Origin: Chiloscyllium plagiosum
Lineage: Eukaryota
DNA length: 64,000 nt
Direction: 5' to 3'
Assembly (NCBI RefSeq): GCF_004010195.1
Contig: NC_057710.1
Location: 23,330,779-23,394,778 of the forward strand
In this document: piece by piece, positions 1,036 through 57,574 of the stretch
Layout of the letters: each line of letters starts with the position of its first letter
How positions within the stretch are numbered: position 1 is the first letter of the stretch
Program-made: the position numbers and the translations under genes
The notes under the pieces: model-generated
Database searches by the model: none
Seen by the model: only the letters and a program-made list of their open reading frames with translations
Told to the model about the DNA's origin: nothing

Positions 1036-2401
1036 TTGCTGCTGGTACTTATCAAAAAAAATATTTACCAAATACTTATGCTTCGTCAGATTTGAACAGT
1101 TTTAGAAAGATTGAAGGTAATGCCATAGAAGAGCACATAATGGACTTCAGAAGATTGCACCCATGACTGCAGAACTTCTGGCTGGAAATTCCTCAGTCAC
1201 TTATTAGATTGCAGCAACGGATAACATTTTCACAGATTTCCAGTTTTGATTGGAGATAAATTTGCAGAAAGACACAAACTGATGCCAAACATATCAGAAG
1301 CACTATAAGAAAACTTTTGGGAAACACATCATTCCAGCAGTGTTCATAATGTAAATTAGGCAGGCAGCCATCCAATAGAAACCAGAGCAGACATTACTGA
1401 AATAACGAGATCATTTAGATATGGGTCACAGGAGACAATGTGAAAGAAGATTTAACAATGAGAAATAAGCATTGAATTTTTTTTTGCAATTTTGAGAAGT
1501 GAAAAGAATCTGTTATCTTACAATAAAAGTCTGAACCTCAGAAATGGTAAATCAAAGTTTTAGGTGTGATTCCATGTCCAACTACATCATCAACTGTTCC
1601 AATGGTACATTAGAGGTTTCTACACTAAATATGAGAAAGAAGATCATGATATGTATCAGAGAAGGGGCATTATATTGGTCTTCAGTTTCAGGCCAGCAAT
1701 AAAGGTGTTAGTGGCAGAATCTTTGCATTGGATTAGAACTATTATGTGCAGAGTAGACCTGGCTAAAATGCTACCGAAACCTTCTGAGTTATAATGATTG
1801 AAATAAATTTAAGGAATCCGAGAGTTCTGAAGAAGGGTTACTGGACTCGAGATATTAACTCTCTCTCTCTCCACAGATGCTTACAGATCTGCTGAGTTTC
1901 TCCAGCAATTTCTATTTTTGTTTCATCTTATCAAAATTGAGCTATCTTTAAGTTAAAACAGACCTTGATATGTTTTACCGGCATCGTAGTGGCAACTTGC
2001 AGGCATCTTTATGATGCATGTTGATAACATTTGGTAATTGAGAACAAGGAATTTGAAAACATTGTCACATTGCCACAAAAGGTTTTAAAGCAAATTCAAA
2101 ATTGGAAGTCAGTCATGCTTAAGCAAATTTTAAGTACATTGGATTGGAAATCCGGCAAAATGGGTCAAATGTCACTTTGCATCAGGAATTTAGAAAGTAG
2201 AAATTTTGAAACAAATCTCCAAATTGAAATGGTGTGGACACAGCAGTCAGCAGTCTAATTGCCTTACAAAGAAAAGAATGAGCTCAAAGAAAGTACTAGA
2301 AATACTGAAAAAATTATATTTGGAACTTTGATGTTCACTATCAAAAAAGGAAGAATGTAGAATGTTTCATTCTGCACAATTTTCATATGTCAGGTATAGA
2401 T

Positions 2402-2720
2402 GGTAGGGGACAGTGAGGTCTGCAGATGCTGGAGATCAGAGTTGAGAGTGTGTTGCTGGAAAAGCACAACAGGTCAGGCAGCATCCAAGGAGCAGGAAAA
2501 TCAACGTTTTGGGTGGAAGCCCTTCATCAGGAATGAGGCTGGGAGCCTCAGGGGTGGAGAGATAAGTGGGAGGGGGGTGGGGCTGGGGAGAAGGTAGCTG
2601 AGAGTGCAATAGGTGGATGGAGGTGGGGGTAAAGGTGATAGGTCAGAGCGGAGGGTGGAGCAGATAGGTCAGAAGGAAGATTGACAGGTGGCACAGGTCA
2701 TGAGGACAGGTCATAAGTGT
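2402..2720 (-). mobile_element. Penelope-like element 3' terminus
   Basis: ctgcagatgctggagatcagag...cccttcatcagg module shared with 18220, 22300, 25580 and 47520. Confidence 0.7.
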
Positions 2721-4664
2721 CATGGATAGGGTAAACCCATACACGCATGACCCTCTGTTTGAAAAAGTTGCCCTTTAGGTCCTTTTTATTTTTTCCCCTC
2801 TCATCTTAAACCCTCTAGTTCTGGAATCTCCCACCCCAGGGAAAAGATCATATCCCAGCCCCTCATGATTTTATAAACCTCTATAAGGTCACCCCTCAGC
2901 CTCTCATTGAAGGATCAAATTGTTGAGGGAGTCATTCATATCCTCCTTGCTTGGTCCCAATGTTTCAGATGAGGCCAAATCACCCACACCAGTAAGGCAC
3001 GTTGCATAGAGATATTCAAGTGAAGCTAGAGAGGTATGTGAACCAGAAAGGAAAGAGATGACAAGTTGATTGGATTGAATGAAATATACTGGATACAGTC
3101 TCATTTGGAGTATCAGCCCTAAACTAGATGTTATTATTCATTCATGGGATGTGAGTATGACTGGCAAGCCCATGCATTTATTGCCTCTCCCTAAAAATGA
3201 ATCAAATAGCCTGACTTGTCTGCAAATTCTATTTAATTCTATGAAATAACGTATCAACAAAAAATGTATCTTCTCATCAAACCACATCATTATCAGCAAA
3301 GAATTGGGGTTGTGAAACACTGAAACCAACATGTAAAGCTTCAAAACCTGAACAGCTTAGGAGACTGAAAAGGTAGATTGAGGAGCAGTGATAAAAAAAA
3401 GGAAGAAAACAAAAAAGATAAAGTTACTGCTTTAAGATGCAATTCAGCAAACCCCACCAAAGAGTAACACAAAGTGTTAGGATGACTTCATGCAAATCTC
3501 CCCAACCTCAAACCAACACTCAGACTGTAATGCAATATCACTGGAGCTCAGAATGCTTTTCAGTAACACTTACAGAAATACTCAACGATCTTAGAAATGG
3601 TGTAGGTCGAACAAAGCTACTCTAAGAGTATCTCACTCCATTTTCATTATTTAGTTGCAACCATAACCTGAAAGATCCAAATCAACCTACACACAGAATG
3701 AAAACAGCGTAAACAATTTGTAAGACCAAACAAAAATACTGAAAAAAAGGTCCACTTTATTTAAAGTTCCATGTCTCTTTATTTTTGTGTCGTTAAAAAC
3801 TGTTGACAGCAATCAGAAGGAACATACTCTGGCCCCCATCAATTTATTTCATATTTTAGTATTTGAACAAGTAAAACTTACACATCCTTAAGATGCTATA
3901 AGTTCTCCTTGACCCAAGACACTCTGATTAGACCTTGGGATATCAACATTACTCTTGACAATATGGAATTTTAACCAAGTATATTCCACAAATGACACCC
4001 CCCAAGACTTTGGTTGGACATCAACTACTCCCTAAATTTTCAGCCATCTCTGTCTATGCACTTTAGTATTTTCAAGTTATTTTCTTCTGGCCCCTTTCTT
4101 AAAAGAATTAAGCAGCATGAAAAATTGTACTTATATTCACTTAGCAATGATCCTAACCTCAGAATGTCCAAAAGTGCTTTGAAATTTAAGAAATAAAAAG
4201 ACTGGTGGGTGTTCTTAAGCTGCAGGGTAGTACATCTCAGGCAAGGGGCAGAGGTGAGAAGCCAGGACATTCATAGTGACCTCAGCTGGGATAGGAATTG
4301 AATCTATGATATTGACTTTGTATTGTAGTTGCAAACCAGCCAGCCAACTGAGCTAACTAGAACCCACTCGTTCTGAAATGTAGTCACTATTGTATTTTCA
4401 GAATTCTGCAATGAATAACTCACCACTTGTTTACCTAGTGCATGTCTACTGACAATAAGGTGCAAGTCAGGAGTTTGGCAAGTCAAGTGTGTAATGGAAT
4501 ACTCCCCACTTGCCAGGATAAGTGCAGCCCCAACATCACTCAGGATGCTTGACACCATCCAGGACAAAGCAGTCCATCTGTTTGGCATCCTATCCACCCT
4601 TTTCAACATTCACTCCTTTCACCACTGACGTAAAGTTTGTTCTGCCTAGAAGGTGCACTGCAAT

Positions 4665-7380: not shown

Positions 7381-7384
7381 TACA

Positions 7385-10306: not shown

Positions 10307-10513
10307 TGATTTGGAGATGCCGGTGTTGGACTGGGGTGTACAAAATCAAAAATCACACAACACCAGGTTATAGTCCAACGGTGTAATTGGAAGCACTAGC
10401 TTTTGGAATGTTGCTCCTTCATCAGGTGATATCACCTGATGAAGGAGCGATGCTCCGAAAGCTAGTGCTTCCAATTACACCTGTTGGACTATAACCTGGT
10501 GTTGTGTGATTTT
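10307..10513. mobile_element. Fold-back short element (Penelope-terminus derived) with hammerhead ribozyme core
   Basis: Arms about 10348-10430 and 10431-10513 are inverted with no spacer; TSD taacctcagttt at 10295-10306 and 10514-10525. Confidence 0.8.
10433..10467 (+). ncRNA. Minimal type I hammerhead ribozyme motif
   Basis: cac-CTGATGA-a-ggagc(gat)gctcc-GAAA-gcta-gtg: stem I cac/gtg, stem II 5 bp, palindromic AGCT stem III, CUA cleavage triplet. Confidence 0.72.
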
Positions 10514-11449
10514 TAACCTCAGTTTGTCCACGTCGAACCAGATTGCTTTATTCCTCATGGCTTTAGTTTGAACTGTAAGTTATCATAATTATCCCTGCTA
10601 AATTTACAAATAATGAAACGTGCAAAGACTTTGTGCCTAAGGATATATTTTGCTGAGAATTCAATTTCAGAAACAAAGAACAGAAATTCATTCTTCAGTG
10701 TGCCTGATCACTGTAAACACAAGCTGACTTCCTGACACTCTGCCATGCCTGTCTTCTCCACCATGCATTGGCATTGTCAAAGTGAAAGAGTTCTCCTGGA
10801 GTTGTGACCAATATTTTTCCAGTGTGTTTTTTTTTAACATAAGATGTGGCCATGTTGGCTGGCTAGTATTTATTGCCCATCCCTAGTTGCCTTTGAAAAG
10901 GTGGTGGCCTTCTTGAACCGCTGCAATCCATCTGCTGTGGGTTGAGCCACAATGCCCTGAGGGAGGGAATGCCAGGATTTTGGCCCAGCGACAGTGAAGG
11001 AACGGTGTGATATTTCCAAGTCAAGGTGATTTGGAGGGGAACTTGCAGGTGGTCTTCCAATGTACTTGCTACTGTTGCCCTCATTCTTGTAAACTCCTAT
11101 AAATATAATCCCAACCGATTCAGTCTCCTTCAGTAAAATCTAGAGAGCTGGCCAAATGACTACTATGTAACCGCTGTTGATTGTTGTTAAAAACACCTGG
11201 TTCACTCATGTTCTTTCATGAAGGAAGTTTGCTGTCCTCACCCTGTTTGACCTACACGTGACTCCAGACTCCCAGCATTGGGGTTGACTCTTAACTGCCC
11301 TCTGGGCAATTAGGGATGGGCAATAAAATGCTGGCCTGGGAGGGAACTCTCACATCACCTGAATGATATCTTTTTAAGTGCACAATTAGCTGTCAGGTCT
11401 TAACTGTCCCGAGGTAATGAAAGGCGCTACATAAATGCAAGTTCTGTTT

Positions 11450-12350: not shown

Positions 12351-12429
12351 CACTACAACAAAATGGCTTTGTGCAGGAGCTCTGGTGAAATGGCAAATCA
12401 GTATGCAGGGAAAGTATTGGAAAGATTTG

Positions 12430-13580
12430 AAAACCTGTATCAATCCCCATTTGTAGAGGCAAGGATTAATCCGGGACAATTAGCATGACTTTGTCAGGGG
12501 AGATTGTCAGACAGATTTGATTGAGTTTTGAAGGAGGTGATTGGATGGATAAATGCGAGGTATTGCATTTTGGTACAACAAATACGGTGGAACTTATACA
12601 ATTAATGGTAGGGCCTTGGGAAGTGTTGTAGAATAGAGGAACCCAGGGGTTCAGGTACATAATTCTTTAAAGTTAGCGTCACATATAGACAGAATGGTTT
12701 AAAAAGGTGTTTGGCACACTTGAAACGTTGATTTTCCTGCTCCTCGGATGCTGCCTGACCTGCTGTGCTTTTCCAGCACCACTCTGATTTAAACACCTTG
12801 CCTTCATTGCTCAGTCCTATGAATATAGGAGTTAGGAAGTCATGTTGAGGTTGTACAGGACATTGGTGAGGCCTCTTCTGGAATACTGTGTCCATTTTTG
12901 GTTGTCCAGTTATAGGAAGGATATTATTAATCTAGAGAGGGTTCAGATGAGATTTCCCAGGATATTGCTAGGTATGGGAGGTTTGAGTTATAAAGAAAGG
13001 CTGGATAATCTGAGACTTTTTTCACTAGAATGTAGAAAGTTGAGAGGTGACTTTAAAGAAGTTAGTGGGTGGCACTAAATCTCTAGATTAATAATATCCT
13101 CACAGCGCCAGAGACCCGGGTTCAATTCCCGCCTCAGGTGACTGTGTGGAGTTTGCACGTTCTCCCCGTGTCTGTGTGGGTTTCCTCCGGGTGCTCTGGT
13201 TTCCTCCCACAGTCCAAAGATGTGCAGCTCAGGTGAATTGGCCATGCTAAATTGCCCGTAGTGTTAGGTAAGGTAAATGTAGGGATATGGGTGGGTTGCA
13301 CTTCGGCAGGTCGGTGTGGACTTGTTGGGCTGAAGGGCCTGTTTCCACACTGTAGTGTAATCTAATCTAAATCATGAGGGGTATAGATAGGGTTAATAGT
13401 AGGTGTCTTTTTCCTCGGATGGGGGATTTCAAGACTGGGGGGCACATTTTTAAGGTGAGAGGACAGAGATTTTAAAAAAGACAAGGGGGCAATTTTTTTA
13501 ACACAGAGGGTGGTTTGCATGTGGAATGAACTTCCTGAGGACGCGATGGAAGTGGGAACAATTACAATGTTTAAAAGATC
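12430..13580 (+). mobile_element. CR1 LINE fragment with nested Penelope-terminus and HE1 inserts
   Basis: MLRLYRTLVRPLLEYCVHFW...LERVQ...LRGD. Confidence 0.85.
13066..13369 (+). mobile_element. HE1-type tRNA-derived SINE (5' end disrupted)
   Basis: B box ggttcaattcc, central conserved domain, taatct tail. Confidence 0.88.
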
Positions 13581-14510: not shown

Positions 14511-15611
14511 GTTTTGGATAAAGCCCATCAAAATTGAGGAAGGTTACCTTTTTGAATGAATTCAAATTCCTATGGGTTAAGAAAAGTGACTGCAAACAGA
14601 ACCATGAGGTTGTAACTATAAGGAAATACTGGAGTTCTTTTCTCTAAAGACAAGAAGGCTAAGGTGTAATACAATAGAAATCCTTGAAATTATGAGGCAA
14701 TTTGATAGGCAGACTTAGAGATCATGTTCTCCACTTGTACATAGTCAATAATAGGGATGGTGAGTCATCAGTAAGTTTCATGAGCATTTCAGGAATAATT
14801 TCCTGACCCAGGATATTGTTCGAACATGAATTTATTGCCATGTGGTGTAGCTGAGGCTAATGGCATTGATGATTTCAGGAGGAAACTAGAGAAATAGATG
14901 AGGGAGAAAAGAATGAAGGATATGGCTCACAAAAAAAGAAACTGCTGAAAAGGCTCAGCAAGTCTGGCAGCATCTGAGGAAGGGTCACTGAACCTGAAAT
15001 GTCAGCTCTGATTTCTCTCCACAAACACTGCCAGAGCTGCCAGCAATTTCTGTTTCTGTTTCTGATTTCCAGCATCCATAGTTTTTTTTCAGTTTTGAGA
15101 AGGATATGGCTCTTCTGGTGTATTAACAACAGCATGAGGCAGTTGGCTGTAATGGCCAGTTTGTGTGCTGTAAGTTCTATGTAAGATCAAAAGCTCAACT
15201 GGGTGATTATACCACCAAGCTCTGCAATAGTGTACATTTAGGTCTTTATCTGTATTTAACTGGAACCGACAGGCATGAGAAAGCTGATCAGACACTTAGA
15301 TAAATTGCTGTCTTTTTGGAGGCTTTATGTGGTTGCATTTTGTTTCCTCTAACATCTCTGCAAGAATTACTTGAAAATCTGGTCTTATAACAAAACACTT
15401 GATAGCTTCAATATTTAGTTTTCTTCTGTGAGATACGGGTGTCACTAGTAAGCCCAGCATTTGTTGCCCATCTGTAATTTCCTTTTGAGTGGCTTGCTGG
15501 GTCATTTCAAGGAACAGCTGGAAGTCAATCACATGGGAGTGACTTGGAGGCCACACCAGTTAATGATGGTAGATCTCCTTCACTAAAGGACCATTACTGA
15601 GACTGGCTATG

Positions 15612-18219: not shown

Positions 18220-18441
18220 TGGAGAAAGTGAGGACTGCAGATGCTGGAGATCAGAGTCGAGAGTGTGGTGCTGGAAAAGCACAGCAGGTCAGCAGCATTG
18301 AGGAGTTGGAGGATTGATATTTCGGGCATAAGCCCTTCATCAGGAATTTTATGTTGAAGAACTTATGCCCGAAATGTCGATCCTCCTGCTTCTGGGATGC
18401 TGCCTGACCAGCTGGGCTTTTCCAGCACCACACTCTTCGAT
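18220..18441. mobile_element. Fold-back Penelope-terminus element
   Basis: Inverted arms; 14-bp TSD ttagtaaatacggt at 18206-18219 and 18442-18455. Confidence 0.8.
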
Positions 18442-20361: not shown

Positions 20362-23300
20362 GTAAGTACATTTCCAGCTGAAAGTTTCACTGCGTGAAAA
20401 TGCTGGCATTCCTGTCGTTTATGTTTGGGCGAGTTTTGAATAGGAGACTTGTTTAAAGAGCTTTGTTTAAAGAAATCCACAGTCATACTGCAGAGGGGGG
20501 GGGGGGGGGCGTTCGGCCGCTTCTATCAGTGCCTGACCTTTGAAAGAGAGACGCAATTGGTGCCACTCTCCCTTGTAACTGATTTCTTAGGAGGAATTGA
20601 TCCCATTTCCAGAGAATTGGAGACTGATTGCAGAGCAGGAGGCGGCAATTCGGCCCATCGCTGGCTGTCCACACGGGCAGCTCACTTCTTCCCAATCCTC
20701 CCACTCAGACAAGGAACCAATTCTCTTTTGGATTGAGTCAGCCTCTCGGGGGCAGAAAGTCAGAGGCCCGACCACGTATAAAATCCTAACGAATCCGCAT
20801 CCTCTAAAGGCTGGAAGAGAATAGGGAATGTTGAAACAATGCAGTCGAATCTCGCTAGGGAGGGGAGGGATAACAGGAAAATAACGCCGTGTCTGTCCGT
20901 GCAGGTGCCCAGGCGGAGACAATCCTCCAGCAGACTCCGAGAGAAATACTGGCGGCCAAAGGCGAGAATGTCGAACTCACCTGTAATCTGAAGAGGGGCA
21001 CACTCGATGAGGTCTTCTGGTACAAGCTAGAGGGAAACTCCCAGGCCCATTTTCTGAAGTCCGCCACTGTCCTGAACAGACAGGCCTCAGGAGAGGGAAT
21101 AACCGGGCGGTTCATTTTAACCAGAGATGCCTTTCGACTGTCGTTCAGTTTAACCATAAAAGACATACAACTGTCAGACAACGGCACCTACTACTGCCTG
21201 ATGCTCAGCTCCTACTTTGTGTCTTTGGGAGGTGGAAGTGTGGTCACAGTAGGTAAGAAGCTTTCCAATTTCAATACCCCCTACCGTAACAAATAATCAA
21301 AATAAGCATCGACTTTAAGAAACAAAATAAGGAATTGCTGTTTGCTGAACGACTGAGACAAGAACAGGAAGTTTTGGAGAAGCTCTATAGGTCTGGCAGC
21401 AGTTATGGAGAGAGAACACATAGTTAACGTTTCGGGGTGAGTGACCCTTCTTTAGAACTGGGCTCTCTCTCCAAGCTGCTGTCAGACCTGCTGAGTTTCT
21501 CCAGCAATTTCAGACCTCTCCAGTGTTTTATTGAAGGGAGACTGACCGTCCCTTCTGATTATGTCGGGGTTTATGTTTGACTCCCACCTAAAGTTCTGGC
21601 TGGTGTGGGTCCCGCTGGTTGGACTGGGGATTATTAGTGACATGAATCGCCACAGCTGTCAAGTCTAACAAAGTTTTTAAAAAAATCACACAACACCAGG
21701 TTATTGTCCAACAGGTTTATTTGGAAGCACTAGCTTTCGAAGCGCTGCTCCTTCATCAGGTAGCTAGTGCTTCCAAATAAACCTGTTGGACTATAACCTG
21801 GTGTTGTGTGATTTTTAACTTTGTACAGCCCAGTCCAACACCTGCTCCTTCACATCAAGCCTAACAAAGTCAGGCTTTGGTTTGTGATAAATAGTTGCTG
21901 TCGGTCATTCTGTGAGTTGACAGATGGCCCGTGGATATACCGTAGACCATTAAAACGTTGCTTGTTTCAGTTCCAGAACGAAAGATAGTAACTTCTCCGC
22001 CTCCGACTACTAAACGCCACAGAATCCATCACTTCAACTACCCCAAGGTGCGAAACAAGAAGCAAACGTGGAATCATGGTAAGATCAATGCGTTCACTGT
22101 GTCTGAGACAGACAGACTAGCGCTGTTCAGTCAATCTGACTGATAAATACAGCTAGTTACAGTCCAATATCTCAACAGTACACGCACATTGATGGAAAAC
22201 AGAAACTCAGCAGGTCTGGCAGAGAGAAAACACAGAGTTAACGTTTCGGGTCCAGTCCAAAGAAGGACCCGAAACGTCAACTCTACTTTCTCTCCAGACC
22301 TAGGCAAAAGTGGGTACTGCAGATGCTGGAAAACCAGAGTTTAGATTACAGTGTTGCTGGAAAAGCGCAGCAGGTCAGGCAGCATCCGAGGAGCAGGAAA
22401 ATCAACGTTTCGGGCAAAAGCTCTCCATTCCTGATGAAGGGCGTTTGCCCGAAACGTCGATTTTCCTTTCTCTCCAGACCTGCTGAGTTTCTCCAGCAAT
22501 TTCTGATTTCCCGCAGTTCTTTGCTTTATTTAGAGCTTGCCTTCCAATGTGCTGATTCGTTATCAGCACAACATTGACAGGGGAATCATCACAGCATTTT
22601 CCTCAAGCACTGTCTAGCTGAAGCCAACTTCATATCTTTGTTTTTTTTTAACTTCAAAAGTCCTCGATCTGAAATGTTTCCCACTGATGCTGAATGTTTC
22701 CCGCGCTTCCCCTAATTTGTAAACGTTATTTTCCTTTTTGTTATGGAGACGATCCGTTTGGGATATTTGGTAATTCAGTTTAGGCCCCAAATAGCATCTG
22801 GATGTTTTTTCGAACCAGGAAAGAAAATACCGTCAGAAACCTGCCCGCGTTATCTAGCTTTGGCGTAGAGCTGAGTAAATTCTGAAGTACTGGGAGGTGT
22901 ATGTATAAATGGGAAACACTCTCAGTTGAACACGTACTAGGGGGAAATACTATCTGTAGGAGATGGTGGGAGGGCGTCCTGTGTTTTTAACCTTTACTGG
23001 AAATCCTTTCATGGTATTTTCTACATTCCCCTTCTCGCAGTCCCTTCATTTATTTATGGCCTATTATATGGCAGCGCCATTTATGACCGTCCAGGACACA
23101 TAACAACATAAGCACCAGGAGCAGGAGTAGGCCATCCGGCCCATCGAGCCTGCACCGCCATTCAATAAGATCATGGTCGGTCTTTTACTGGACTCAACTC
23201 CACTTACCCCTCTGTTCATCATAACCCTTAATTCTTTTACTGTTCAAAAATCTTATGTCTTGGCCTTAAAGGCATTTAACGAGGTAGCCTCAATTGGGCA

Positions 23301-26300
23301 GGGAATTCCACAGATTGACAGCTCTCTGAGTGAAGAAGTTCCTCAACTCAGTCCTAAATCTGCTCCCCATTATTCTGAGGCTGTGCCCCTTGGTTCTAGT
23401 TTCACCCGCCAGTGGAAACAACCTCCCTATTCCCTTCAGAATTTGATATGTTTCTATAAGATTGTGGTCCTTCTTCTAAATGCTAATGAGTGAAGTCCCA
23501 TTTTACTGAACCTCTCCTCTTAACTCCAGAGTCAACCTAGTGACCCTCTTCTTGCACCCCCTCCAGTTCCTCCTTTCTCGAGTAAGCAGACTCTGGAATC
23601 TCCTCTCTCAGCCTCTCTACTGCCCTACAACACTCGGGCCTCAATTCTCAACGCATTTTAGGCCCCAGCCCTATTATCTCTCAATGTGGCTGGGCGCCAT
23701 TGACAACGCCTTGGCAGTTGTTGCGTGCTGCTACATAAATGCACTGTTATTTGTCCTCCTATAGTGGGGGGGGGGGAAGGTGAATGTGGAGGTTTACAAA
23801 CATGAAATAGCTTTGGTTTTGAAATGCCAGTATGAGCATTTTTATCTTGTTCCCTGCGAATGTTGGTGAATGGATTTGTGAGGAAGCTGGCCTGTCCCAA
23901 ATACCGGGGTCAGGCCGCTCCGAGTCTTTTCCATTAAAACCATTGGACGGGGTCAGACTGCAGGAAAATGTCACCCTGAAGTGTAAGGCTGCCGTGCATT
24001 TCCAATTGAGTTTGCAGCGCACAAGGAGACGCCTCCTGAGCAGGGTTTTATGTTGCTTTTCTTTTACTTAAAGCAAGGCAAAACTACTTTATTAATTCCC
24101 GTAGCCCCGCTTTCCCGTTTAACGTACAATTGCCTGTCTGAAAAGGGTGCATGAATACTGACAGTCCTCACTGGTTAACTGCAGAACTCCCTTGTGCTTG
24201 CCAATTTTACCAAAAACAAATCCTAAAGAACTGAGGATGTTGGAAATCAGAACCAAACACAGAAATTGCTGGAAAAACTCGGCAGCTCTGGCAGCATCGC
24301 TGGAGCGAAAACAGTTACCGTTTCGGGTCCGGTGGAGAAGGGGGGTAGATCCCAGCCTCGGGGGACTGTGTGGAGTTTGCACATTCTCCCCATGTCTGCA
24401 TGAGTTTCCTCCCACAGTCCAAAGATGTGCAGGTCAGGTGAATTGGCCATGCTAAATTGCTCATAGTGTCCAGGGATGTGTAGGTTAGGTGCATTAATTA
24501 GGGGATATGTAGGGTATTAGGTTAGGGGAATGGGTCTGGGTGAGATACTCTTCGGAGGGTAGGTGTGGACGTGTTGGGCTGAAGGCCCTGTTTCCACGCT
24601 GTAGGGATTCTATAATTCTATAAATGCTGCCGAGTTTTTCCAGTAATTTTTGGATTTTCGTTTGAATAGAAGAGTGTTCATTTCAGAAGACATCTTTACA
24701 AAACGGGGGCTGGCTTGGTTTTAATGGATGTGTTGGCAGAATAAATGAGGGCAATGTTGGCCCGACACGAGCTGTGGGTGGTGATGGGGAGAAGGGGGTG
24801 ATTAATATTGAAGGAGCTGGGATTCTTAACTTCTCTCCACTCGCTTGGAATAAAATCATGGTGTTGTCAATTTCTGAATTCTTACACGTGCCGTCAGTTG
24901 GGCCTTTAGTCTGAACTACTGCCCCGAGGAATTAAATGAGAGACAAGTTATTTATTTATTGCCGGGATAAATCTAAACCGTCATCTGCCGCAGATTGGAG
25001 AGATACCCAGCAAATTAGACAGTGGATAATCCCACCGAATTCTATGGTTATTTCAGATTTCGGCCAATCTTGCGATGTAATCCATAAATCAGTGGTTGTA
25101 ATTAATAGAAATCTTCCTGATACACACGCAGTGACTACACAGCAGCATCACTCCGATTAGGAACAGTTGCCTTGGTCGAGTGAAAGTCCCAGTGCTGAAT
25201 TTGTACAAGTATATGGTCATTTGTTTCGTGTTTTGTTTTCTGGGACCTTGATGGACCTTCCCAGCAATGCATCAGTGACCTTCCTGTCATTTATATAAGT
25301 GGGTTGGATGTGAATATAGGAAGAATGGTTGGTAAGTTTGCAGATGACACCAAAATTGAAGGTGTTGTGGACAGCGAAGAAGGTCATCTTAGTACCATGG
25401 ACCTTGATCAGATGGGCCAATGGGCCCCTGAGTGGCAGATGGAGTTTGATTCAGATAAATGTGAAGTGTTGCATTTTGGAAAGGCAAATCAGGGCAGGAC
25501 TTATACACTTAATGGGTAATATTGCCAGAGAAAGAGACCTTGGAGTACAGATTCATAATTCCTTGGATGTGGAGTCACAGTCGAAATGTGTGGCTCTGGA
25601 AAAGCACAACAGGTCAGGCAGCATGCTAGGAGCAGGAGAATCCACGTTTAGGGCATAAAGCCTTCATCAGGAATGTAGAGGGGGCTGAGAGATAAATAGG
25701 GGGTGGGGGTGGGGCTGGAGCTGGAGCTGGAGGGAGGTGCAAAATTGGAGGGTTGGATTTGGGATGAGGTTGGGGGAGAGGAGACTTGGAAACTGATGAA
25801 ATAAATGTTGATGCTGTGTGGTTGTAGGGTCCCAAGATGGAAGATGAAGCGTTCTTCCTCCAGGTGTCAGGTGGCTGGGATTTGATGGTGGAGGAGGCCC
25901 AGGACTTGCATGTCCTTGGTGGAGTTGGAAGGGGAGTTTAGATTCTCTACAGTGTGGAAACAGGCCCTTTGGCCCAACAAGTCCACACTGACCCTCCGAA
26001 GAGTAACCCACCCAGACCCGTTTCCCTCTGACTAATGCACCTAACACTACGGGCAATTTAGCATGGCCAATTCACCTGACCTGCACATCTTTGGACTGTG
26101 GGAGGAAACCGGAGCACCCAGAGGAAACCCACGCAGACACGGGGAGAATATGCAAGCTCCACACAGACAGTCACCCGAGGCTGGAATCGAACCTGGAACC
26201 CTGGCACTGTGAGGCAGCAGTGCTAACCACTGAGCCACCGTGCCGCCCAAAGTTGAACTGGTTAGACACAGGGCAGTGGGGTTGTTTGGTGCATATGTCC

Positions 26301-29862: not shown

Positions 29863-29971
29863 CATCAAATCTTTTGAGGTCTGGCAGCATCTGTGGAGAT
29901 AAATCAGAATTAACGTTTCAGGTCCAATAACCCTTCTTCGGAATTCAGTTTTTACAGCAATTTCTAATTAT

Positions 29972-35869: not shown

Positions 35870-38800
35870 GCAATATGGTTCTATGTCAGGATTACAAGAA
35901 ATGGAATAAAACTAAAAGTAAAGGCTTACAAAATTGTGAAAAACAGCACAGATCTTGCCAAATGGGAAAGAGCCACAAAGCAACTTATAAGAACTACTAA
36001 AGGGACAATGTACTGATTCTTATGTCTGCAGGAAATGTCTTTGATTGAAAATCCTATCAGATCGCATGGATTGGTTGGAGCCGCAGTTAGTGGCAACAAT
36101 GAAACTACAGGGGCAAGAGGATGTGATGGATGGCAGTTATAGGAAGAGAGAAAAGCTGTAGATACAGTAAGGTAGATGGGTTAACTCCAGGAGAGGGAAG
36201 CAGGAGGCAGGTTGAGATGTGGCTATCCCCATTTCAAACAAGAATGCTGTTTTCGAAAATGTAGGGTTGATGGATTCTTAGGGGAATGTAGCATGAACAG
36301 CCAAGATTCTGGTACCAAGAATGACTCTAATGTAGTGAGGAGTATGTCAGGTTCCGAGCAATCCATTGTGATAGGGGGCTACCTAGTCAGAGGCACAGAC
36401 AGATGCTTCTGCGGCTGGCAGCAAAAAATCAGAATGGTGTGCTGCTTCCCTGAGGCCAGGATCAAGGATATCTCAGAGGGTGCAGGATGTTCTCAAAGAG
36501 GAGAGGGACCAGCAGGAAGTCATTGTGCACATTGGAACTAATGACATAGGAAGGGAAAAAGATGAGATGTCTTAAAACATAAAGCATAAAAGTGGATAAA
36601 TCCCTAGGATCTGATCAAGTGTACCCTAGAACTCTGTGGGAAGCTAGGGAAGTGATTGCTGGGCCCCTTGCTGAGATATTTATACCATCAATAGTCACAG
36701 GTGAGGTACTTGAAGATTAGAGGTAGGCTAACGTGGTGCCACTGTTTAAGAAGAGTGGTAAGGACAAGCCAGGGAACTATAGACCAGTGAGTCTGACATT
36801 GGTGGTGAGCAAGTTGTTGGAGAGAATCCTGAGGGACAGGATTTACATGTATTTGAAAAGGCAAGGGCTGATTGGGGGTAGACAACATGGCTTTGTGCAT
36901 AGGAAATCATGTCTCACAAACTAGATTGAGTTTTTTTGAAGAAATAACAAAGAGGATTGATGAGGCAGAGCAGTGGATGTGATTCTATGGACTTCAATAA
37001 AACATTTTACTAGGTTCCTCATAGTAGATTGGTTAGCAAGGTTCTAGTTCATGGAGTACAGGCGGAAATAGCCATTTGAATATAGAACTGGCTTGAAGGT
37101 AGAAGACAGAGTGATGAAAAAGGGTTGCCTTTCAGACTGGAGGCCTGTGACCAATGGTGTACCACATGAACGGTGCTGGGTCCAGTGCTTTTTGTCACTT
37201 GTATAAATGGTTCAGATGTGAGCATAGCAGGTATAGTTAGTAAGTTTGCAGATGATGCCAAATTTGGAGGTATAGTGGACAGTGAAGAAGGTTACCTCAG
37301 AGTACTCTAGGATCTTGATCAAATGGGCCAGTGGGCTGAGGAGTGGCAGATGGAGTTTAATTTAGATAAATGTGAAGTGCTACATTTTGAAAAGGCAAAT
37401 CAGCAGGACTTGTACACTTAAAGGTAAGGTCCGGGGAGTGTTGCTGAACAAAGAGACCTTCTGGTTCATAGTCCTTTGAAAGTGGCGTCGCAGGTAGACA
37501 GGATAGTGACGAAGGTGTTTGGTATGCTTTCCTTTATTGGTCAGAGCATTATGTATATAAGGTAAAAACAATAACTGCAGATGCTGGAAACCAGATTCTG
37601 GATCAGTGGTGCTGGAAGAGCACAGTAATTCAGGCAGCATCCAATGAGCAGCGAAATCGACGTTTCAGGCAAATGCCCTTCATCAGGAATAAAGCCTTTA
37701 TTCCTGATGAAGGGCTTTTGCCCGGAACGTCGATTTCGCTGCTCGTTGGATGCTGCCCCATTGTGTATATAAGTTGAGAGGTCATGTTGCAGCTGTATAG
37801 GACATTGGTTACGCCACTTTTGGAATATTGCATGCAATTCTGGTCTCCCTCGTCTCAAAGATGTTGTGAAACTTGAAAGGGTTCAGAAAGAATTTACAAG
37901 GATGTTGCCAGGGTTGGAGGATTTGAGGTACAGGGAGAGGCTGTATAATATGGGGCTGTTTTCCCTGGAACATTGGAGGCTGAGGGGTAATCTATTAGAG
38001 ATTTATAAAATCTTGAGGGGAATGGATAGGGTAAATAAACAATGTATTTTCCCTGGGGTGGGGGAGTCCAAAACTAGAGGGTTTAGAGTAAAATATAAAA
38101 GGGACCTATGGGCAATTTTTTTCATGCGGAGGGTGGTGTGTGTATAGCACGAGTTGCTAGAGGAAGTGGTGGATTACGACATTTAAAATGCATCTGGATG
38201 GGTATACAAATAGGAAGGGTTTAGAGCGATTTGGGCCAAATGCTGGCAAATGGGACTATATTAGTTTAGGATATCTGGTCAGCATGGACAAGTTGGACTG
38301 TTTCTGTGCGGTACATCTCTATGACTGTATGACTCCATGAAAGGAAACTTGCAAGAAACATCAAATTCAACAGGAAGATATTTTATAGTTATATAAAATG
38401 GAAAGCAGGTGGTCAGAAGCAATGTTGGGCTTGAACCTGGGTGTTTTCAATGGCTATTGGGAAATGGCAAACATGTTGAGAAATTACTTTGCCTCAGTAT
38501 TTACAGTAGAGAAACTGTAAATTAACAATGGATCGGGGACAGAGACTTAATAAAATTTACACATATGAACATTGATAATGCAAACGTTAAAATAAATAAA
38601 AAGTGATCTAAGGGCCCAGGACTTAAAGATTTCCATCTAATGGTGTTAAAGAGGTAGGGGAGCATGTTGTAGTTGTCCTAACTATCATCATTCAGAGTTC
38701 CTTAGGTTTTGTCCCTCTGGTATGGAAAATTGCACATGTCACTGTACTTTTTAAGAAGAATGTAAGCGTGGAATTACAGGCCAGTTAGCCTAACACCTGG

Positions 38801-41800: not shown

Positions 41801-42850
41801 TTTTTCTGGATGGCAAGATGTAACTAGGTGGGGATCACAGAGTTCGACCCTCTGACTCCAGCTGTTTACAATCTACATTTACAACTTGGATACAGGGCTC
41901 GAAGGCTCAATAGCCACATTTGACAACTCAAAAATAGGTGGGACAGTGAATTGCAGTGTAGAATGGGCCAAAATGTGGCGGATGGAGTTTAACATGGATA
42001 AGTGTGAGGTCATGCATTTTGGTCTAAAAAATGGTAAGACAACCAATTATCTAAATGGGAAGAGACTCCGGGGTGCTCCGGTGCAGAGAGATCTAGGTGT
42101 CCACATTCATGAGTCACTGAAAACTAGCATGCAGGTACAGCAGATAATGAAGAAAGCAAATGGAGCGTGGGCCTTTTATAGCTAAAGGAATAGAAGTAAG
42201 GAAGTACTGATGCAAATGAATAAGGCATTGGTGAAACTGTACCTGGAGTATTGTGCACAGTTTTGGTCCCCTTATTTGAGGAAAGATGTAGTGTCAGTGG
42301 TGGTAGTTCAGAGGAGGTTCACTAGACTGATCCCAGATATGAGAGGTTTCTCTTATGAAAAGAGATTGAACATTTAGGGTGTAGGTTTGCTCGCTGAGCT
42401 GTAGGTTTGATTCACAAACCTTGCAAGAGATTGAACAATTTAGGCTTACACTCTCTGGAATTTATAAGAATGAGTGGATATTAAATTGAGGTATTCAAGA
42501 TGATAAAAGGTATGGATAAAATAGACTCGTTGCGGATGCTTCCTCTTGTGTAGCATTCGAAGACAAGAGGTCTTAAGATAAGAGGTACGAAAATTTAAAA
42601 CAGAGCTGAGCAGAATTTTCTTCTCCCAAGTGGTTGTGAAACTGTGGAATTCACTATTCCAAAGTGCTGTGGATGCTGGGACAGCGAGTACATTTATGGA
42701 GGAGTTAGACAGATTTTTAATTGATAAAGGGTTGAAGGGTTATGGAGAGAAGGCAGGAAAATGAGAATGAAGAGTGTATCAACCATGATTGAATGACGGA
42801 GTAAACTCGATAGGCTGAATGGCCTAATTCTGCTCCTATATCTTGTGAAC
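35870..42850 (+). mobile_element. Large nested CR1 LINE cluster (mostly +, with a minus copy at about 40740-41620)
   Basis: ORF1 esterase-like remnant (VCCFPEARIKDISE), ORF2 PGNYRPVSLT, QHGFV..KSCLTN, KFADD, several 3' ends. Confidence 0.85.
39571..39861 (+). mobile_element. HE1-type SINE
   Basis: B box ggttcaattcc, central domain, tail. Confidence 0.85.
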
Positions 42851-44979: not shown

Positions 44980-45623
44980 TTGAAGTTTCCTCATCGTTTA
45001 ATTATCTTACTTGGCTTGTCTCTTCTTTCAAAGATATGCACTGTTCCTCTGATAGTCTATTTGCACATTTATAATCATCATTTTACTCAACCCCCACCAC
45101 ACTTCATTTGCTCCACAGCCTCCAAGATATCTGTATTACTCTAATTCCAGCCTCTTGTGCAGCCCAATTTTAAATTCTGCAACATTGATAGCCAGGCCTT
45201 CAATACGAACATATGAACAACAGAGAAGAGGTCACTCTGCCTTCTAGGCTACTCTACCACTCAATAATTTAATGGTTGATCTGATTTTAACCTCAACTCT
45301 CCATTCTTGCATATCTCCAATAATCTTTCATTCCCTTGGTAACCAAGAATCTATCTACCTCTGGCTTAAAAATATTTAAAGTTCTGAAACACTGCCTTTT
45401 GAGAAACAGGATTCCAAAGACTCATTCTGAGGAAGCTCAATTCTGAGGAAGGATCGCTGGACCTGAAATGTTAACTCTGATTTCTCTCCACAGATGCCAG
45501 ACCTGCTGAGCTTTTCCAGCAATTTCTGTTTTCATTCTGTTTTCAGTTTCATGCTGTGGAACTGAAAACAGCATCCACAGTTTTTTCAGTTTTTATTTTT
45601 CCCATGACTCATAATTCTCTGAC

Positions 45624-45654
<31 letters not shown>

Positions 45655-46713
45655 CCTCTGTTTAAATGGGAAATTGCTTATATACCTGGAATCCTGATGA
45701 GCTTATGTCCAAAACCGTGACTCTCTTGCTTCTCAGATGCTGCCTGACTGGCTGTGCCTTTTCCAGCATCGCACTTCATCGACTCTGACTCTCCACCCTC
45801 TGCAGTCCTCACTATCTCCTAAATTCCTTGTTTTCCTAGTTTGACCCCCATTTCTGGATTCTCCCATAAGATGAACATCCTTTCAATATCCAGCCAGTTA
45901 AATCACCTATGATTCTTCTAAACTGTAGAGAATAAAGGCCCACCATGTCTAGCCTTTCTGCACAAGGCAACCCGTTTATTCCTGATACTAGATCTAATAA
46001 ACTTTCTCTGAACTGCTTCCAATGCTTTAACACCCTTCCACAAGTATGGTGATTAGTACTGTACACAGTACTCCATAGGTGGTCTCACAAATGCCCTGTA
46101 TAACTGATGCAGCTACAGCAAGCAGTTGAAGAAAGAACAAAGAAAATTTACAGCCCAGGAACAGACCCTTCAGCCCTCCAAGCCTGAGCCGATCCAAATC
46201 TACTGTCTAAACCTGTCACCCAATTCCTAAGCATCTGCATCCCTCTGCTCCACACCTACTCATGCATCTGTACAGACGCATCTTAAATGAATCTACTATT
46301 CCTGCCTCTACCACCTCTGCTGGCAACGCGTTCCAAATGCCCACTACCTGCTGTGTAAAGTACTTGCCACGTGTATCCCCCTTAAACATTTCACCCCTCA
46401 CCTCGAAACCATGACCTCTCATTATTTAACAGCTTATCTCTGTCTACCCTGTCTATACCCTTCATGATTTTGTAGACTTCAATCAGATCCCCCCTCAATC
46501 TCCTTTTTTCTAATGAAAACAAACTTAACCTACTCAACCTCTGTCATAGCTAGCACCTTCCATACCAGGCAACATCCTCATAAACCTTCTCTGCACCCTC
46601 TCCAAAGCATTCACTTCCTTTTGGTAATGTGTACAGGACTGTACACAGAATTCTAAATGCGGCCGAACCAACATCATGTACAATTTTAACATGACCTGCC
46701 AGCTCTTATGCTC

Positions 46714-47617
46714 ACCCTGCCCCCTGTAAAAACGCCATCCCATTCTCCCAATTCCTTCGACTCCGCCGCATCTGCTCCCAGGAGGACCAGTTCCAAAAAC
46801 GTACAACCCAGATGGCCTCCTTCTTCAAGGACCGCAATTTCCCCCTGACGTGGTCGACGATGCCCTCCATCGCATCTCTTCCACTTCCCGCTCCTCCGCC
46901 CTTGAACCCCGCCCCTCCAACCGCCACCAGGACAAAACCCCACTGGTCCTCACCTACCACCCCACCAATCCCCATGTACAGCGCACCATCCGCCGTCATT
47001 TCCGCNNNNNNNNNNNNNNNNNNNNNNNNNNNNNNNNNNNNNNNNNNNNNNNNNNNNNNNNNNNNNNNNNNNNNNNNNNNNNNNNNNNNNNNNNNNNNNN
47101 NNNNNNNNNNNNNNNNNNNNNNNNNNNNNNNNNNNNNNNNNNNNNNNNNNNNNNNNNNNNNNNNNNNNNNNNNNNNNNNNNNNNNNNNNNNNNNNNNNNN
47201 NNNNNNNNNNNNNNNNNNNNNNNNNNNNNNNNNNNNNNNNNNNNNNNNNNNNNNNNNNNNNNNNNNNNNNNNNNNNNNNNNNNNNNNNNNNNNNNNNNNN
47301 NNNNNNNNNNNNNNNNNNNNNNNNNNNNNNNNNNNNNNNNNNNNNNNNNNNNNNNNNNNNNNNNNNNNNNNNNNNNNNNNNNNNNNNNNNNNNNNNNNNN
47401 NNNNNNNNNNNNNNNNNNNNNNNNNNNNNNNNNNNNNNNNNNNNNNNNNNNNNNNNNNGGAGGCCACATCGGGTGCAGAGGATGCAATAGATGATGTGTG
47501 TGGAGGTGTGGACAAACTTTCCTCATTCCTGAAGAAGGGCTTATGCCCGAAACGTCGATTCTCCTGTTCCCTGGATGCTGCCTGACCTGCTGCGCTTTTC
47601 CAGCAACACATTTTCAG
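46714..47617 (+). mobile_element. Penelope-like element (RT C-terminus, gap, inverted piece, hammerhead terminus)
   Basis: HPAPCKNAIPFSQFLRLRRICS and PLVLTYHP motifs; core CTGAAGA-a-gggc(ttat)gccc-GAAA-cgtc at 47529-47556; TSD cttatgctca. Confidence 0.85.
47006..47458. other. Assembly gap (N run)
   Basis: Run of n. Confidence 1.
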
Positions 47618-48785
47618 CTTATGCTCAATACCCTGTCTAATGAAGGCAAGCATACCATAGCCTTTTTAACCACTCTATCCACCTGTGCAGCAACCTTCAG
47701 TGTACAATGGACCTGAACTCTCAGATCTCTCTGCTCATCAACCTTTCCCAAGGCTCTTCCATTTATTGTATCCTCCCTACTTTTTCAATCGCACTGGCAA
47801 TAAAACATAGCATTCTATCAACTTTCACAACTGCTTGCTGTAGCTGCATCATTACCTTCTGTAATTCATAAACCAGGACACCCAGTTCTCTCTGCATCTC
47901 GGAGCTCTACAACCTCTCATTATTTAGATAATTTACTTTTTTTTATTCACAATTGACAATTTCACTCTTTCTCACATTGGACTCTATTTCAATTGTCAAG
48001 GTCCCAAACGCTCTCCTTGCTTTCCTCTTTCCTATCAACACGCCTCGTTGCCCAAGGTTTAGGTGATCTGATCTAACTTTGTTTGTGTAGTACTTTGTTT
48101 TATAATGCTTCAAGAAACACGTTAGGAAATGTTAGTATATTAAAGGTGCTATTAATTTACCTGTTTGTTAGCATTGAAATATGGTTTACTATATTACCAT
48201 GTTTTACATATTTTGTGTTGACATTTATTCTAGGTAATAAACACATCATCTCAAGACCAATAACTGGAGGAAAGATTGGAATGTTATTTCAACCAATTTT
48301 GAACTTGTGAAAGTCGTAGTCAGAACTTTATATTGTTAAATGCAGTCTCATCTACATTTCACCCTGCTTTATCATTGCTGTTAAATTTCTTTTGGTTATG
48401 AAAACTGGGATGAAACTTGCACTCAATGTACGCATGCATGAGCCATTACCTCCTCAGAGATTACATGACCATGGAAGTGAGGGGTAAGTTGGGGGTAGAA
48501 TACAAAGAAGTTTTTAGCTAGCCATGATATTTTGGAGACTGTGGTGTGTGGGTCAGCTGTGATTTTCCTGCCTGTGACATTGTCAAAATTCTCTTCAGAT
48601 TAATGTTACTATGATGGATGAAAAGTATTGTCTCCCTGCAATGTTCTCCTTGTGTTTACTGTTCAATAATGTTCACTATGCTTATTCCATTTGCTGCTTG
48701 TATCATACAGAAAGTGTAAAATGTTTACTTTGCAGCTGCAATAAACAGTAATTATGTGTTCTAAAATTACAACAATTTAAAGAGT

Positions 48786-55259: not shown

Positions 55260-55264
55260 GAGTA

Positions 55265-55895
55265 GAGGAGTCCAAACTAGAGGACACAGGTTTAAGGTAA
55301 AAGGGGAAAGATTTAAAAGAGATCTGAGGGGAAACTTTTTCACACACAGGGTGGTACGTATGTGTGATGAACTGCCAAAGGAAGTAATACAGGCAGGTAC
55401 AATTTCAGCATTTAAAAGACATTTGGACAGGTACATGGATAGGAAATGTGTACAGAGATATGGGTCATTTGCAGGCAAACAGGATAGTTCAATTTAGGAA
55501 ATCTGGTCAGCAAGGACAAGTTGGACTCATAGGACTATTCTGGATTAGTGGTGCTGGAAGAGCACAGCAGTTCAGGCAGCATTGGATGCTGCCTGAACTG
55601 CTGTGCTCTTCCAGCACCACTGATCCAGAATCTGGTTTCCAGCATCTGCAGTCATTGTTTTTACCTCATAGGACTATTCCTGTGCCATATGACTCTATCT
55701 CCTGTATCTTATTAAAAATTATTTCATTTCCTATCGATTATTGGGTTTTAAAACTGACTTATTGGGATTACTGTGTAAAATATTGACCTTGTCATTATTG
55801 CTGGCAGGTGGGACTAGATTGGGTTGGAATATCTGGTCAGCATGGACGGGTTGGACCGAAGTCTGTTTCCATGCTGTACATCTCTATGACTCTAA
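55265..55895 (+). mobile_element. CR1 3' fragments with a fold-back Penelope-terminus insert (about 55541-55664)
   Basis: RGHRFKVKGERFKRDLRGNFFT; insert flanked by TSD ctcataggactattc. Confidence 0.8.
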
Positions 55896-56074
55896 ATGGA
55901 GCTATATTGTGTAATCTAACTTTACAACATTGAAATTGCTGTCAGAATATACTGTCCACCAAACAATTGCTTAACCACATGAGCACAAATTGGAGGAGGT
56001 GGACCTTGCAGTTTCTGTAGTGTCTGTCATTGTCTGCGATCATTAAAGATAGTTTCCTGTAGCTAAATGTACCA

Positions 56075-56830
56075 GAATAACATAGAATATATAACACAAA
56101 AACAGGCTGCACGGACCAACTAGTCCATTGTGGTGTTTAAGCTTCACTTAAGCCTCCTCCTATCAAAGTTTACCAACGTAAGTATCAAATACATCTCACT
56201 CAAATATTTGACATTTTCGTCTTCAATGTATCCTTGCTATTTGCTTTAACCACTGTCTCTGTGGCAGCAACTACCACATTCATAATCTGAATTCCCTGTG
56301 GAATTTCCTGGTGACTCTTATACTGATGACTTCCAGTTATGCTCTTCTCCATTAAAGGAAACAGTCTCTCTGAATCCACTCTGTTAACCTTTCACAGTTT
56401 TAAAGGCATCTATTTAGTAGGACCCCTCAACCTTCATGCTTCTAGTGAAAAAAGGCACAGCCTTTCAATTGTATCCTGACATATAAACCCATACATTCTG
56501 ATATAATCCTTGTGAATCTACTCTCTACTCCCCCTTTCTTTTATATGGTTATCAGAACTACACACTGTATTCTAAAGTGTGGTTTAAACAAGCTTCAATA
56601 CATGTCTAGTGCAACGTTCATGCTTTACAATTCTGTCTCCCTGGAAATAATGAGCTTAGTTTTTTTTTTAAATGACCTTGCTAACCAATAGTGCTAACCA
56701 GAGTATATATGTACTCTGAGATCTTTTATTCCTCGACTCCACCTCAAACAGCACCTTCCGAGTATGAAGTGACCTCCCTGTTGTTCTTACCAAAGTGTAC
56801 CAGCTCACATTTATCTGTGTTGAAATTGAT
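56075..56830 (-). mobile_element. Old CR1 fragment
   Basis: Decayed reverse-oriented 3' region. Confidence 0.65.
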
Positions 56831-57574
56831 GGAGAAAACGGGAGAACCATCTATACAACGTATTCAAGAAGAACGGATACTCAAAAAATACAGTCCGCAG
56901 ATTCCTCAAGAACAAACCACGACAAGCAGACCAAACACAGCCTGGAACCCTAACCACCTTACCATACATCAAAGAAGTTTCAGAAAAGACAGCCAGACTA
57001 CTAAGATCCCTCGGAACCCTAGTAGCACACAAATCCACCAACACTCTCAAACAAAAACTAACAAACTTAAAAGACCCAGTACAATCCATGGACAAAACCA
57101 ACGTCATCTACAAAATTCCATGCAAGGACTGCCACAAACATTACGTAGGACAAACAGGAAGAAAGTTAGCCACCAGGATACATGAACACCAGCTAGCCAC
57201 AAAAAGACACGACCCTCTCTCCCTCGTAGCCCTACACACGGATGAAAAAAAACACCATTTCGACTTGGACAAAGCCTGTCCCAGGATAGATGCAAAGCAA
57301 AGACATGCCAGAGAATTCCTAGAGGCCTGGCACTCCAACCACAACGCCATAAACAAACACAGAGATCTAGATACCATGTATCAACCCCTCAGAAAACGAA
57401 CAGGAAATGACATCACCACGAACCCCAGGACCCCCAACCAGGACAAACGTATAAATAGAAAGCAGGAGACAACAGCTTCGCTTCACTTGGAGGTCACCAC
57501 TGATGATGTTACCTAGCCAGGTAATGAAACGTCTGGATATCAAACCTACAGCTCAGCGAGCAAACCTACACCCT
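56831..57574 (+). mobile_element. Penelope-like element 3' half (GIY-YIG endonuclease plus terminal hammerhead)
   Basis: NVIYKIPCKDCHKHYVGQTGRKLATRIHEH...REFLEAWHS..AIN; TLPYIKEVSE linker upstream. Confidence 0.92.
57497..57536 (+). ncRNA. Minimal type I hammerhead ribozyme of the Penelope terminus
   Basis: cca-CTGATGA-t-gttacc(tagcca)ggtaat-GAAA-cgtc-tgg; GUC triplet, predicted cleavage after 57533. Confidence 0.78.

Follow-up and report, generated by a model that had tools for sequence, protein, structure and literature searches.

Introduction

The pseudo-long terminal repeats of metazoan Penelope-like elements (PLEs) carry minimal hammerhead ribozymes that form multiple families described as 'full of covariations', with an extra nucleotide and a palindrome (Cervera and De la Pena 2014, PMC4209133), and what PLE hammerheads are for is not settled (Craig et al. 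2021, PMC8557442). Here, we analyzed a 64,000-nt stretch of the genome of the shark Chiloscyllium plagiosum (NCBI RefSeq assembly GCF_004010195.1, contig NC_057710.1, positions 23,330,779 to 23,394,778 of the forward strand), which we call the window, and in which a preliminary description had placed several hammerhead families. We conclude with high confidence that these motifs are minimal type I hammerheads in the terminal repeats of several PLE families and that they have spread as short, decaying retrocopies. Selection on the fold is likely only in the source elements, which are predicted to cut their own RNA near its 5′ end.

Further described systems bear on this locus. In the Poseidon element PAc of the green anole, cutting depends on protein and uncut RNA serves for insertion (Frangieh et al. 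2024, PMC11167929). Hammerheads form 16 families in the coral Acropora millepora, and up to 120,000 retrozyme copies occur in the axolotl, with a genome of ~28–32 Gb (PMC7229834). Rotifer PLEs have initiator-like words, inverted repeats and tails, and self-priming on an antisense template has been argued for them (PMC3846280). For elements of another kind, untemplated G at full-length L1 and SVA ends has been attributed to copying of the cap (PMC4859970).

PLE ends with hammerhead motifs in the window

We searched the window with a strict descriptor consisting of the core, a stem II of at least 3 pairs, the palindrome and H. This returned 8 motifs, compared to a mean of 0.06 and a maximum of 1 in 100 local shuffles. 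When one core mismatch was allowed, the numbers were 10 in the window and 0.75 in shuffles. Sixteen sites had been named beforehand, and PLE end sequence is present at all of them, at most ~35 nt from where each had been placed. Five are intact (22429, 47527, 10433, 21728 and 57497), four have the full core with damaged stems (18315, 62350, 14973 and 45440), and six carry a core mutation (37702, 2500, 25640, 1821, 21421 and 29906), one of which, 37702, has an intact inverted partner at 37686. The last site, 22235, had been taken for a family C hammerhead. It has no CUGAnGA box, and consists of 3′ halves paired head-to-head. Besides 36 end segments of families A–D, many of them in head-to-head pairs, the window contains one inverted pair from another family, F. 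The predicted hammerhead motifs in the window are real and mostly of a known kind.

Hammerhead families and their Penelope-like frames

Clustering yielded six clear families (A, B, C, D, E and H), a single copy (G) and a decayed set (F). The proposal of at least four distinct families with a common core is thus borne out by A–D, and four more (E–H) were found. Absent from the window are E (L049, L059, L287 and L367), which is young and has its own frame, H (L246, L162, L061 and L344) and G (L252). The stem II and palindrome sequences first given for A–D are the genome-wide majorities. The stem I of family C, given as agagtt/aactct, needs correction. Where a copy includes element sequence further upstream, the core is preceded by TCAGTT, which makes the stem AGUU/AACU. 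The longer version comes from G + AGTT at a junction, the G being a junction base.

A link of the motifs to Penelope termini had been suggested, and A, B, C and D each lie 3′ of a PLE frame. In D, a 228-codon frame precedes the repeat and has a weak Pfam GIY-YIG match (E=0.007), and the sister copy L226 has RVT_1; in the search with the D frame, 150 of 97,107 first-look candidates were scored. Families A, B and C follow frames with reverse transcriptase (RT)-thumb, CxxC linker and YIGET-type endonuclease motifs. Pfam finds RVT_1 in B (L235), and the A and C frames were placed by motifs and by blastp to B (E 7e-15 and 9e-7). Between endonuclease fragments, all from decayed copies, identity is 33% for A–C, 31% for A–B, 26% for B–C, 63% for D–E and 21% for A–D. 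The CxxC linker can be read clearly in A and in B, the C copies examined have a decayed version, and Nematis has the same linker; D and E have none, and their open reading frame (ORF) starts in the hammerhead, as in PAc. By the linker rule, A–C are probably Neptune-type (or Nematis) and D–E Penelope/Poseidon-type.

In B, D and E, the same module also stands before the frame. A 5′ terminal repeat runs into the ORF in D (L314, L319, L330 and L334), E (L367) and B (L340 and L363), and a 5′ repeat of A may be read from one partial tandem; none was seen for C. RT together with GIY-YIG at the C-terminus in one predicted frame is the feature of endonuclease-bearing (EN+) PLEs. Target-site duplications of 9–17 bp occur at 15 of 27 non-inverted sites, and inverted 5′-truncated partners and an optional tail were also found. 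Tails of A (114) and of C (27) were compared, and no common continuation beyond the tail was seen in either set. At five loci, the long 'open frames' consist in part of assembly gaps.

Two observations concern particular copies. A B subfamily concentrated on small contigs (L177, L179, L181, L187 and L188) is 94–95% identical over ~1 kb, has its own stem variants and is possibly an array. At L240:4283-9001, a direct duplication of 2.35 kb with 99.7% identity holds an old C copy and may be a recent duplication or an assembly artefact.

Genome-wide density of the motifs

We next consider density. The sample was drawn from the 41 largest contigs: 100 pieces, each 10 kb long and placed at round coordinates, with 955,641 called bases in all. 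The assembly size used was 3.56 Gb, and the window itself lies on the largest contig. The sample gave 56 strict matches, 4 of them chance-like, while five shuffles gave 0–3. The suggestion of a very high genome-wide density is confirmed at 52–56 motifs per Mb in the sampled stretches, which extrapolates to ~190,000 intact-looking motifs in the genome (~140,000–230,000 with sampling error). With 8 strict motifs where ~3.7 are expected, the window has about twice the genome average. Counted by 3′ flank, the sample contains 107 A, 48 B, 41 C, 8 D and 5 E end copies, or ~700,000 genome-wide by extrapolation. Exact counts over the whole genome are 12,864 for the B core and 25 for the core of C, an old family; in one A subfamily, two forms of the junction occur 5,724 and 6,146 times.

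Such numbers raise the question of whether the stubs are an independent non-autonomous element, retrozyme-like or SINE-like, with source genes of its own. They are indeed far more numerous than frame-bearing copies, many have their own duplications, and tandem retrozymes have been reported in one chondrichthyan (bioRxiv 10.64898/2026.07.22.740005). However, the stubs are continuous with the frame-bearing termini, end at the same two tail points and have variable starts. In addition, the canonical helix I and loop contacts are absent, no tandem hammerhead array, a retrozyme trait, occurs in the window, and sampled 10-kb stretches hold at most 3 strict motifs each. We therefore consider separate source genes improbable.

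Covariation between families and decay within them

Stem II came out of register when ten family copies were aligned with MAFFT, and pairs were therefore counted by their place in the structure, with one copy per family (the majority for H) in seven families. The bases pair at 55 of 56 stem I–III positions, compared to 168 of 336 when strands are swapped between families. Among 5,040 permutations, 55 is reached only by the true assignment (54/56 with the main A subfamily), a count that is not a probability because the families are related by ancestry. In A, H and C, whose 3′ flanks can be aligned, three pairs have changed on both sides, and in D, E and G pair 3 of stem I takes three forms. The core CUGAnGA...GAAA and the U-H cut site are present in the majority of A, B, C, D, E and H and in the single copy of G. 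The extra nucleotide at 9/10.1 is A in A, B, C and H and U in D, E and G, the palindrome is ACGU or AGCU, and stem I is short, with 2–4 bp. Folding energies gave no discrimination. Common ancestry tempers this picture of a conserved fold, as do the main young A subfamily, in which stem I has 2 pairs and a mismatch, and E, which has a G-G mismatch in stem II.

To follow decay within families, we picked copies by both flanks and never by the ribozyme (43 A, 73 B and 50 D). Rare non-CpG changes are as frequent in the core as in the flank, or nearly so (core/flank 0.012/0.020 in A, 0.025/0.025 in B and 0.017/0.019 in D). G12, which in A and B is part of a CpG, has mutated in 9/43 A and 23/70 B copies, at CpG rates. 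Stem pairs are broken 31, 80 and 19 times in A, B and D (130 in all) and changed on both sides only 4, 9 and 1 times (14), some of the latter by double CpG decay. The full core with paired stems II and III persists in 22/43 A, 14/73 B and 29/50 D copies. Variants common to A subfamilies are found at N7, in loop II and as the stem I mismatch, and not at non-CpG core positions. Selection on the fold is thus visible in source lineages only, and the copies decay neutrally. The 'compensatory stems' proposed earlier hold between families and fail within them, and the selection on ribozyme structure that they were taken to indicate applies to the source lineages and not to the copies in the window. 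In D and E the stems are also protein-coding, so conservation there cannot be read as RNA-structure selection alone.

These data bear on the idea that the host keeps dispersed copies as working ribozymes, for example for cutting intronic RNA, and that this explains their paired stems. Although the ~190,000 motifs look intact and many lie in host transcripts, the core mutates like the flank, G12 decays at CpG rates and broken pairs far outnumber double changes. Moreover, stem III cannot be closed in a single copy, and the head-to-head pairs would be expected to fold as long hairpins. Host retention is very improbable and is largely refuted for the bulk of copies, among which a few may have been domesticated.

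Position of the ribozyme relative to the start codon

In both D and E, the first codon of the element frame is an AUG made up of A9, the extra U and G10.1. The frame of the E copy L367 is unbroken from the core AUG for 335 codons, up to an assembly gap, and the D copies L314, L319, L324, L330, L331 and L334 have the same N-terminus, with frameshifts or stops. The predicted cut site of D and E lies 28 nt after the A of this AUG. The B frame starts at the tail end, ~95 nt past the predicted cut site, and one partial tandem suggests that the A frame starts ~45 nt past the tail. Separately, the sequence 3′ of the ribozyme in A and B (e.g. window positions 47575-47605) has branch-point-like and pyrimidine-tract-like words ending in CAG, similar to a splice acceptor; no spliced reads were found for A.

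A start codon inside the motif raises the possibility that the fold is kept as a protein-binding, promoter or translation signal, with cutting vestigial or incidental. Apart from the D/E start codon, this would agree with the catalytic mutants of the anole element, which have no effect on insertion in vitro, and with the lack of reads ending at the cut site (PMC11167929). It would also agree with the Naiad PLEs, which thrive without canonical hammerheads (PMC8557442), and with the lack of a 5′-end pile-up at the cut site described below. On the other hand, all catalytic positions and the U-H triplet (GUC, GUU or CUA) have been retained by seven families with endonucleases just 21–63% alike, and the C3G/G8C rescue in the anole element demonstrates real catalysis in a relative (PMC11167929). 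We regard a signal without cutting as unlikely, though it keeps an appreciable share of our belief.

5′ ends of the copies and the G signature

We mapped the 5′ ends of copies picked by their 3′ flank. Within −12 to +2 of the core fall 75 of 201 A, 31 of 67 B and 22 of 65 C ends. Expressed per nucleotide, this hot spot has 5.0, 2.07 and 1.47 ends in A, B and C, compared to 0.23, 0.08 and 0.06 just upstream, a drop of more than 20-fold on which solo and inverted copies agree. At the cut site there is no pile-up (1.11, 0.44 and 0.44 ends per nt). In RNA run X21, the read depth over dispersed A copies falls ~3.5-fold at −4, from 372/264 to 106/72, with 100 loose ends, and 95% of 1,561 placed reads continue into unrelated sequence, as is the case for copies in host transcripts. 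D has no such step (196 reads). Neither A nor D reads contain a point where many molecules begin or end, in a poly(A) single-cell library that is blind to cut ends and to the RNA start.

Upstream of the core stand the words TCATTC (A), TCAGTT (C) and CCAGTC (H), each with an A at −4, and we take them to resemble the initiator consensus. For the A junction form, G stands before the A at −4 in 65 of the first 100 sites listed, A in 20 and T in 15, against 0.29 expected for G. At −3, one base further on, G is found at only 13 of 100 listed sites (Fisher p 2e-14 vs −4). By eye, we inspected 60 of the first 61 listed −4 sites; 33 of them are inverted, with the G at 25, and 27 are not, with the G at 15. 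The non-inverted ones include ~5 that resemble arm remnants and 2 that are a local duplicate. At 6 inverted sites and 1 solo site, the G is templated by neither side. This pattern would fit an extra C at the end of the complementary DNA, either inserted or picking a G to anneal to, and the G excess at −4 suggests a capped RNA start. Two points count against the G as a trace of the cap: the inverted arm or the target site could have supplied most of the G's at −5, and among 15 solo copies with a duplication 9 have the G, of which 7 lie inside the duplication and 1 is cleanly untemplated.

The same facts might be explained by a reverse transcriptase that stalls or folds back at the ribozyme, with a G excess that comes from microhomology to arms and target sites. 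More than half of the inspected −4 sites (33/60) are inverted, many G's could be templated by an arm or a duplication, and 44 of the 201 A ends lie inside the ribozyme. However, an enzyme that stalls on entering the fold would leave ends 3′ of it, and D, which has the longest stem II, has no depth step in its 196 reads. The G excess is confined to −4, while arms end in G at many different positions; in addition, there are the seven untemplated G's seen by eye and the initiator-like word at −4 in A, C and H. Stalling is doubtful in our view, although it is a serious contender.

Proposed role of the hammerhead in source elements

The element RNA would carry two hammerheads, one at the 5′ end and a second at the 3′ end. 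Since a 4-nt palindrome cannot close stem III in one copy, cutting would need a second copy or the element protein. Sequence on either side of the cut site is retained in the copies, and their 5′ ends do not pile up there; hence uncut RNA appears to be the usual template. In A, B and C the RNA would start 2–9 nt before the core, and a cut would remove the capped first 30–40 nt; in D and E it would lie 28 nt past the A that opens the first AUG. The likely effect of such a cut would be to turn translation off or to process multimeric RNA, rather than to make the insertion template. Stubs of 110–160 nt may result from reverse transcription that begins at the 5′-proximal copy of the tail site and runs to the RNA end, and the head-to-head pairs from fold-back.

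We tentatively propose, in a form that may prove right but that we would not yet call probable, that the hammerhead is a translation off-switch. In Neptune-type elements the capped RNA would begin 4 nt before the core, with stem I of the ribozyme as its first bases, and self-cleavage would remove the cap; in Poseidon-type elements the core would provide the start codon and the cut would sever it. The stubs, in their hundreds of thousands, would then be run-off copies that record the RNA start, and the cap as an extra G.

Several results weigh against the assignment to PLE ribozymes or against their cutting. An Rfam scan of the window at E ≤ 5 gave no hammerhead match, which counts only against membership in those curated covariance models. 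Pfam gave no match in three A and C fragments or in two B endonuclease fragments. No intact full-length element is present among the copies examined, and most of the long ones are broken by assembly gaps. In vitro, metazoan minimal hammerheads are poor cutters (PMC4209133), and 8 of 9 Xenopus dimers stayed uncut.

The interpretation first given for this DNA is right for source elements and already published, and the diversity of families adds little to it. Our modest additions are the copy number, the two positions that the ribozyme takes where the message begins, and the G signature. Nevertheless, the genome offers at least seven natural variants for cleavage assays. The copies point to insertion of uncut RNA, in agreement with the in vitro result for the anole element. 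Finally, the sharp 5′ end and the extra G predict an exact RNA start and a function, the removal of a cap or of a start codon.

Copies and other features of the window

Family D is represented by a 5′-truncated PLE at 56830..57575 (+), probably of Penelope/Poseidon type, with an endonuclease tail and 3′ terminal repeat. It includes the 228-codon open frame, for which the GIY-YIG match is below the Pfam cut-off, and reaches the common 3′ end at ~57575. Its minimal type I hammerhead at 57497..57536 (+), found by the descriptor, is intact, with the AUG at 57506-57508 (A9, extra U and G10.1). Family-end matching detected a D 3′ fragment without ribozyme at 42372..42411 (−).

Family A has an intact young stub at 47517..47629 (+; core at 47529) and three head-to-head pairs: 22317..22509, with an intact forward arm (core 22431); 37569..37757, with an intact minus arm (core 37686) and a core-mutated plus arm (37704); and the CpG-decayed 18227..18440 (core 18343). 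Two A copies have a mutated G12. One, at 2412..2540 (−), has ~200 nt more element sequence upstream. The other, at 25579..25935 (−), is preceded by the C-terminal end of a putative Neptune-type frame, and a SINE-like repeat interrupts further upstream. A decayed A stub is located at 45692..45811 (+) and further fragments at 12722-12780 and 41091-41160. Head-to-head A 3′ parts at 55537-55657 make up an almost perfect hairpin, which several microRNA families match with scores under their Rfam cut-offs.

Two family B pairs are found at 10308..10517, with an intact plus arm (core 10436), and at 21668..21841, with an intact minus arm (core 21759). The solo B stub at 62263..62388 (−) has the tail, a 14-bp target-site duplication and decayed stems, and an older copy with a mutated G12 at 27710..27791 (−) had escaped the preliminary description. 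Family C stubs are found at 1824..1924 (+; core mutated, beginning with G + AGTT), 24227..24334 (−; starting inside stem II), 29877..29943 (−; core mutated) and 45437..45543 (+; core kept, stems decayed). C pairs are located at 14933..15076 (core kept, stems decayed) and 21358..21511 (core mutated), and the C 3′ halves that lack the 5′ core box at 22201..22301. The decayed head-to-head pair of family F at 28061..28241 has an A/C-like 3′ flank and 7 matches among fetched loci. Assembly gaps occupy 47006-47458 and 58587-59091.

Other features are unrelated to the hammerheads. An open frame at 20874-21293 (+) encodes one V-set domain of the immunoglobulin type (Pfam V-set E=2.5e-16), and its exon also contains a J-like glycine motif; its best solved-structure matches are antibody and T-cell-receptor V domains, and it may be a CD8-like host gene. 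At 51141-52381 (+), two frames resemble by eye the endonuclease and RT start of an L1/Tx1-type LINE, and Pfam gave no match for either. Dominant repeats other than PLE ends are present at 37773-38144 and in many similar copies; we take these repeats to be CR1/L2-type LINE 3′ ends and a tRNA-type SINE.

Comparison with known systems

The motifs share most properties of those in PMC4209133: the type I core, the extra nucleotide at 9/10.1, G10.1-C11.1, a short helix I, the palindromic 15.2–16.2 and their occurrence mostly as single motifs of truncated copies. D differs in its G-U at 10.1–11.1. Because covarying families, the extra nucleotide and the palindrome were already described there, our finding is not new in kind. 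The number of motifs, ~190,000 by extrapolation (~55 per Mb), is above the counts in the compared papers, such as ~4,000 in coelacanth and ~9,000 in Xenopus (PMC4209133), which were obtained with other descriptors. Shark terms do not occur in the main text or in two of the three supplements of that paper, and our literature searches found no report of shark PLE hammerheads or of a cap/start-site (G) pattern for these elements.

Non-LTR retrozymes (PMC7229834; bioRxiv 10.64898/2026.07.22.740005) are likewise type I, with PLE-derived termini and many families. However, they form tandem units of ~150–450 bp with mostly canonical ribozymes, whereas the shark copies are dispersed minimal stubs, solo or head-to-head. 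The model argued for rotifer PLEs, self-priming (PMC3846280), also differs from the one proposed here.

Neptune PLEs (PMC8557442) have in common with our families a C-terminal GIY-YIG, the CxxC linker (in A and B), an inverted 5′-truncated partner and an optional tail of 30–40 bp. This probable Neptune assignment follows the linker rule, and the linker also occurs in Nematis and is decayed in C.

Another close counterpart is PAc (PMC11167929). A, B and C are unlike PAc in that their extra nucleotide is A, and the B ORF begins ~95 nt past the cut site; our side of this comparison is drawn from sequence. What is alike is the ORF that starts at stem II (in D and E), the two 3′ ends separated by the tail and the uncut template. 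In both, the cut would closely follow the start codon, after 26 nt in PAc and a predicted 28 nt in D and E.

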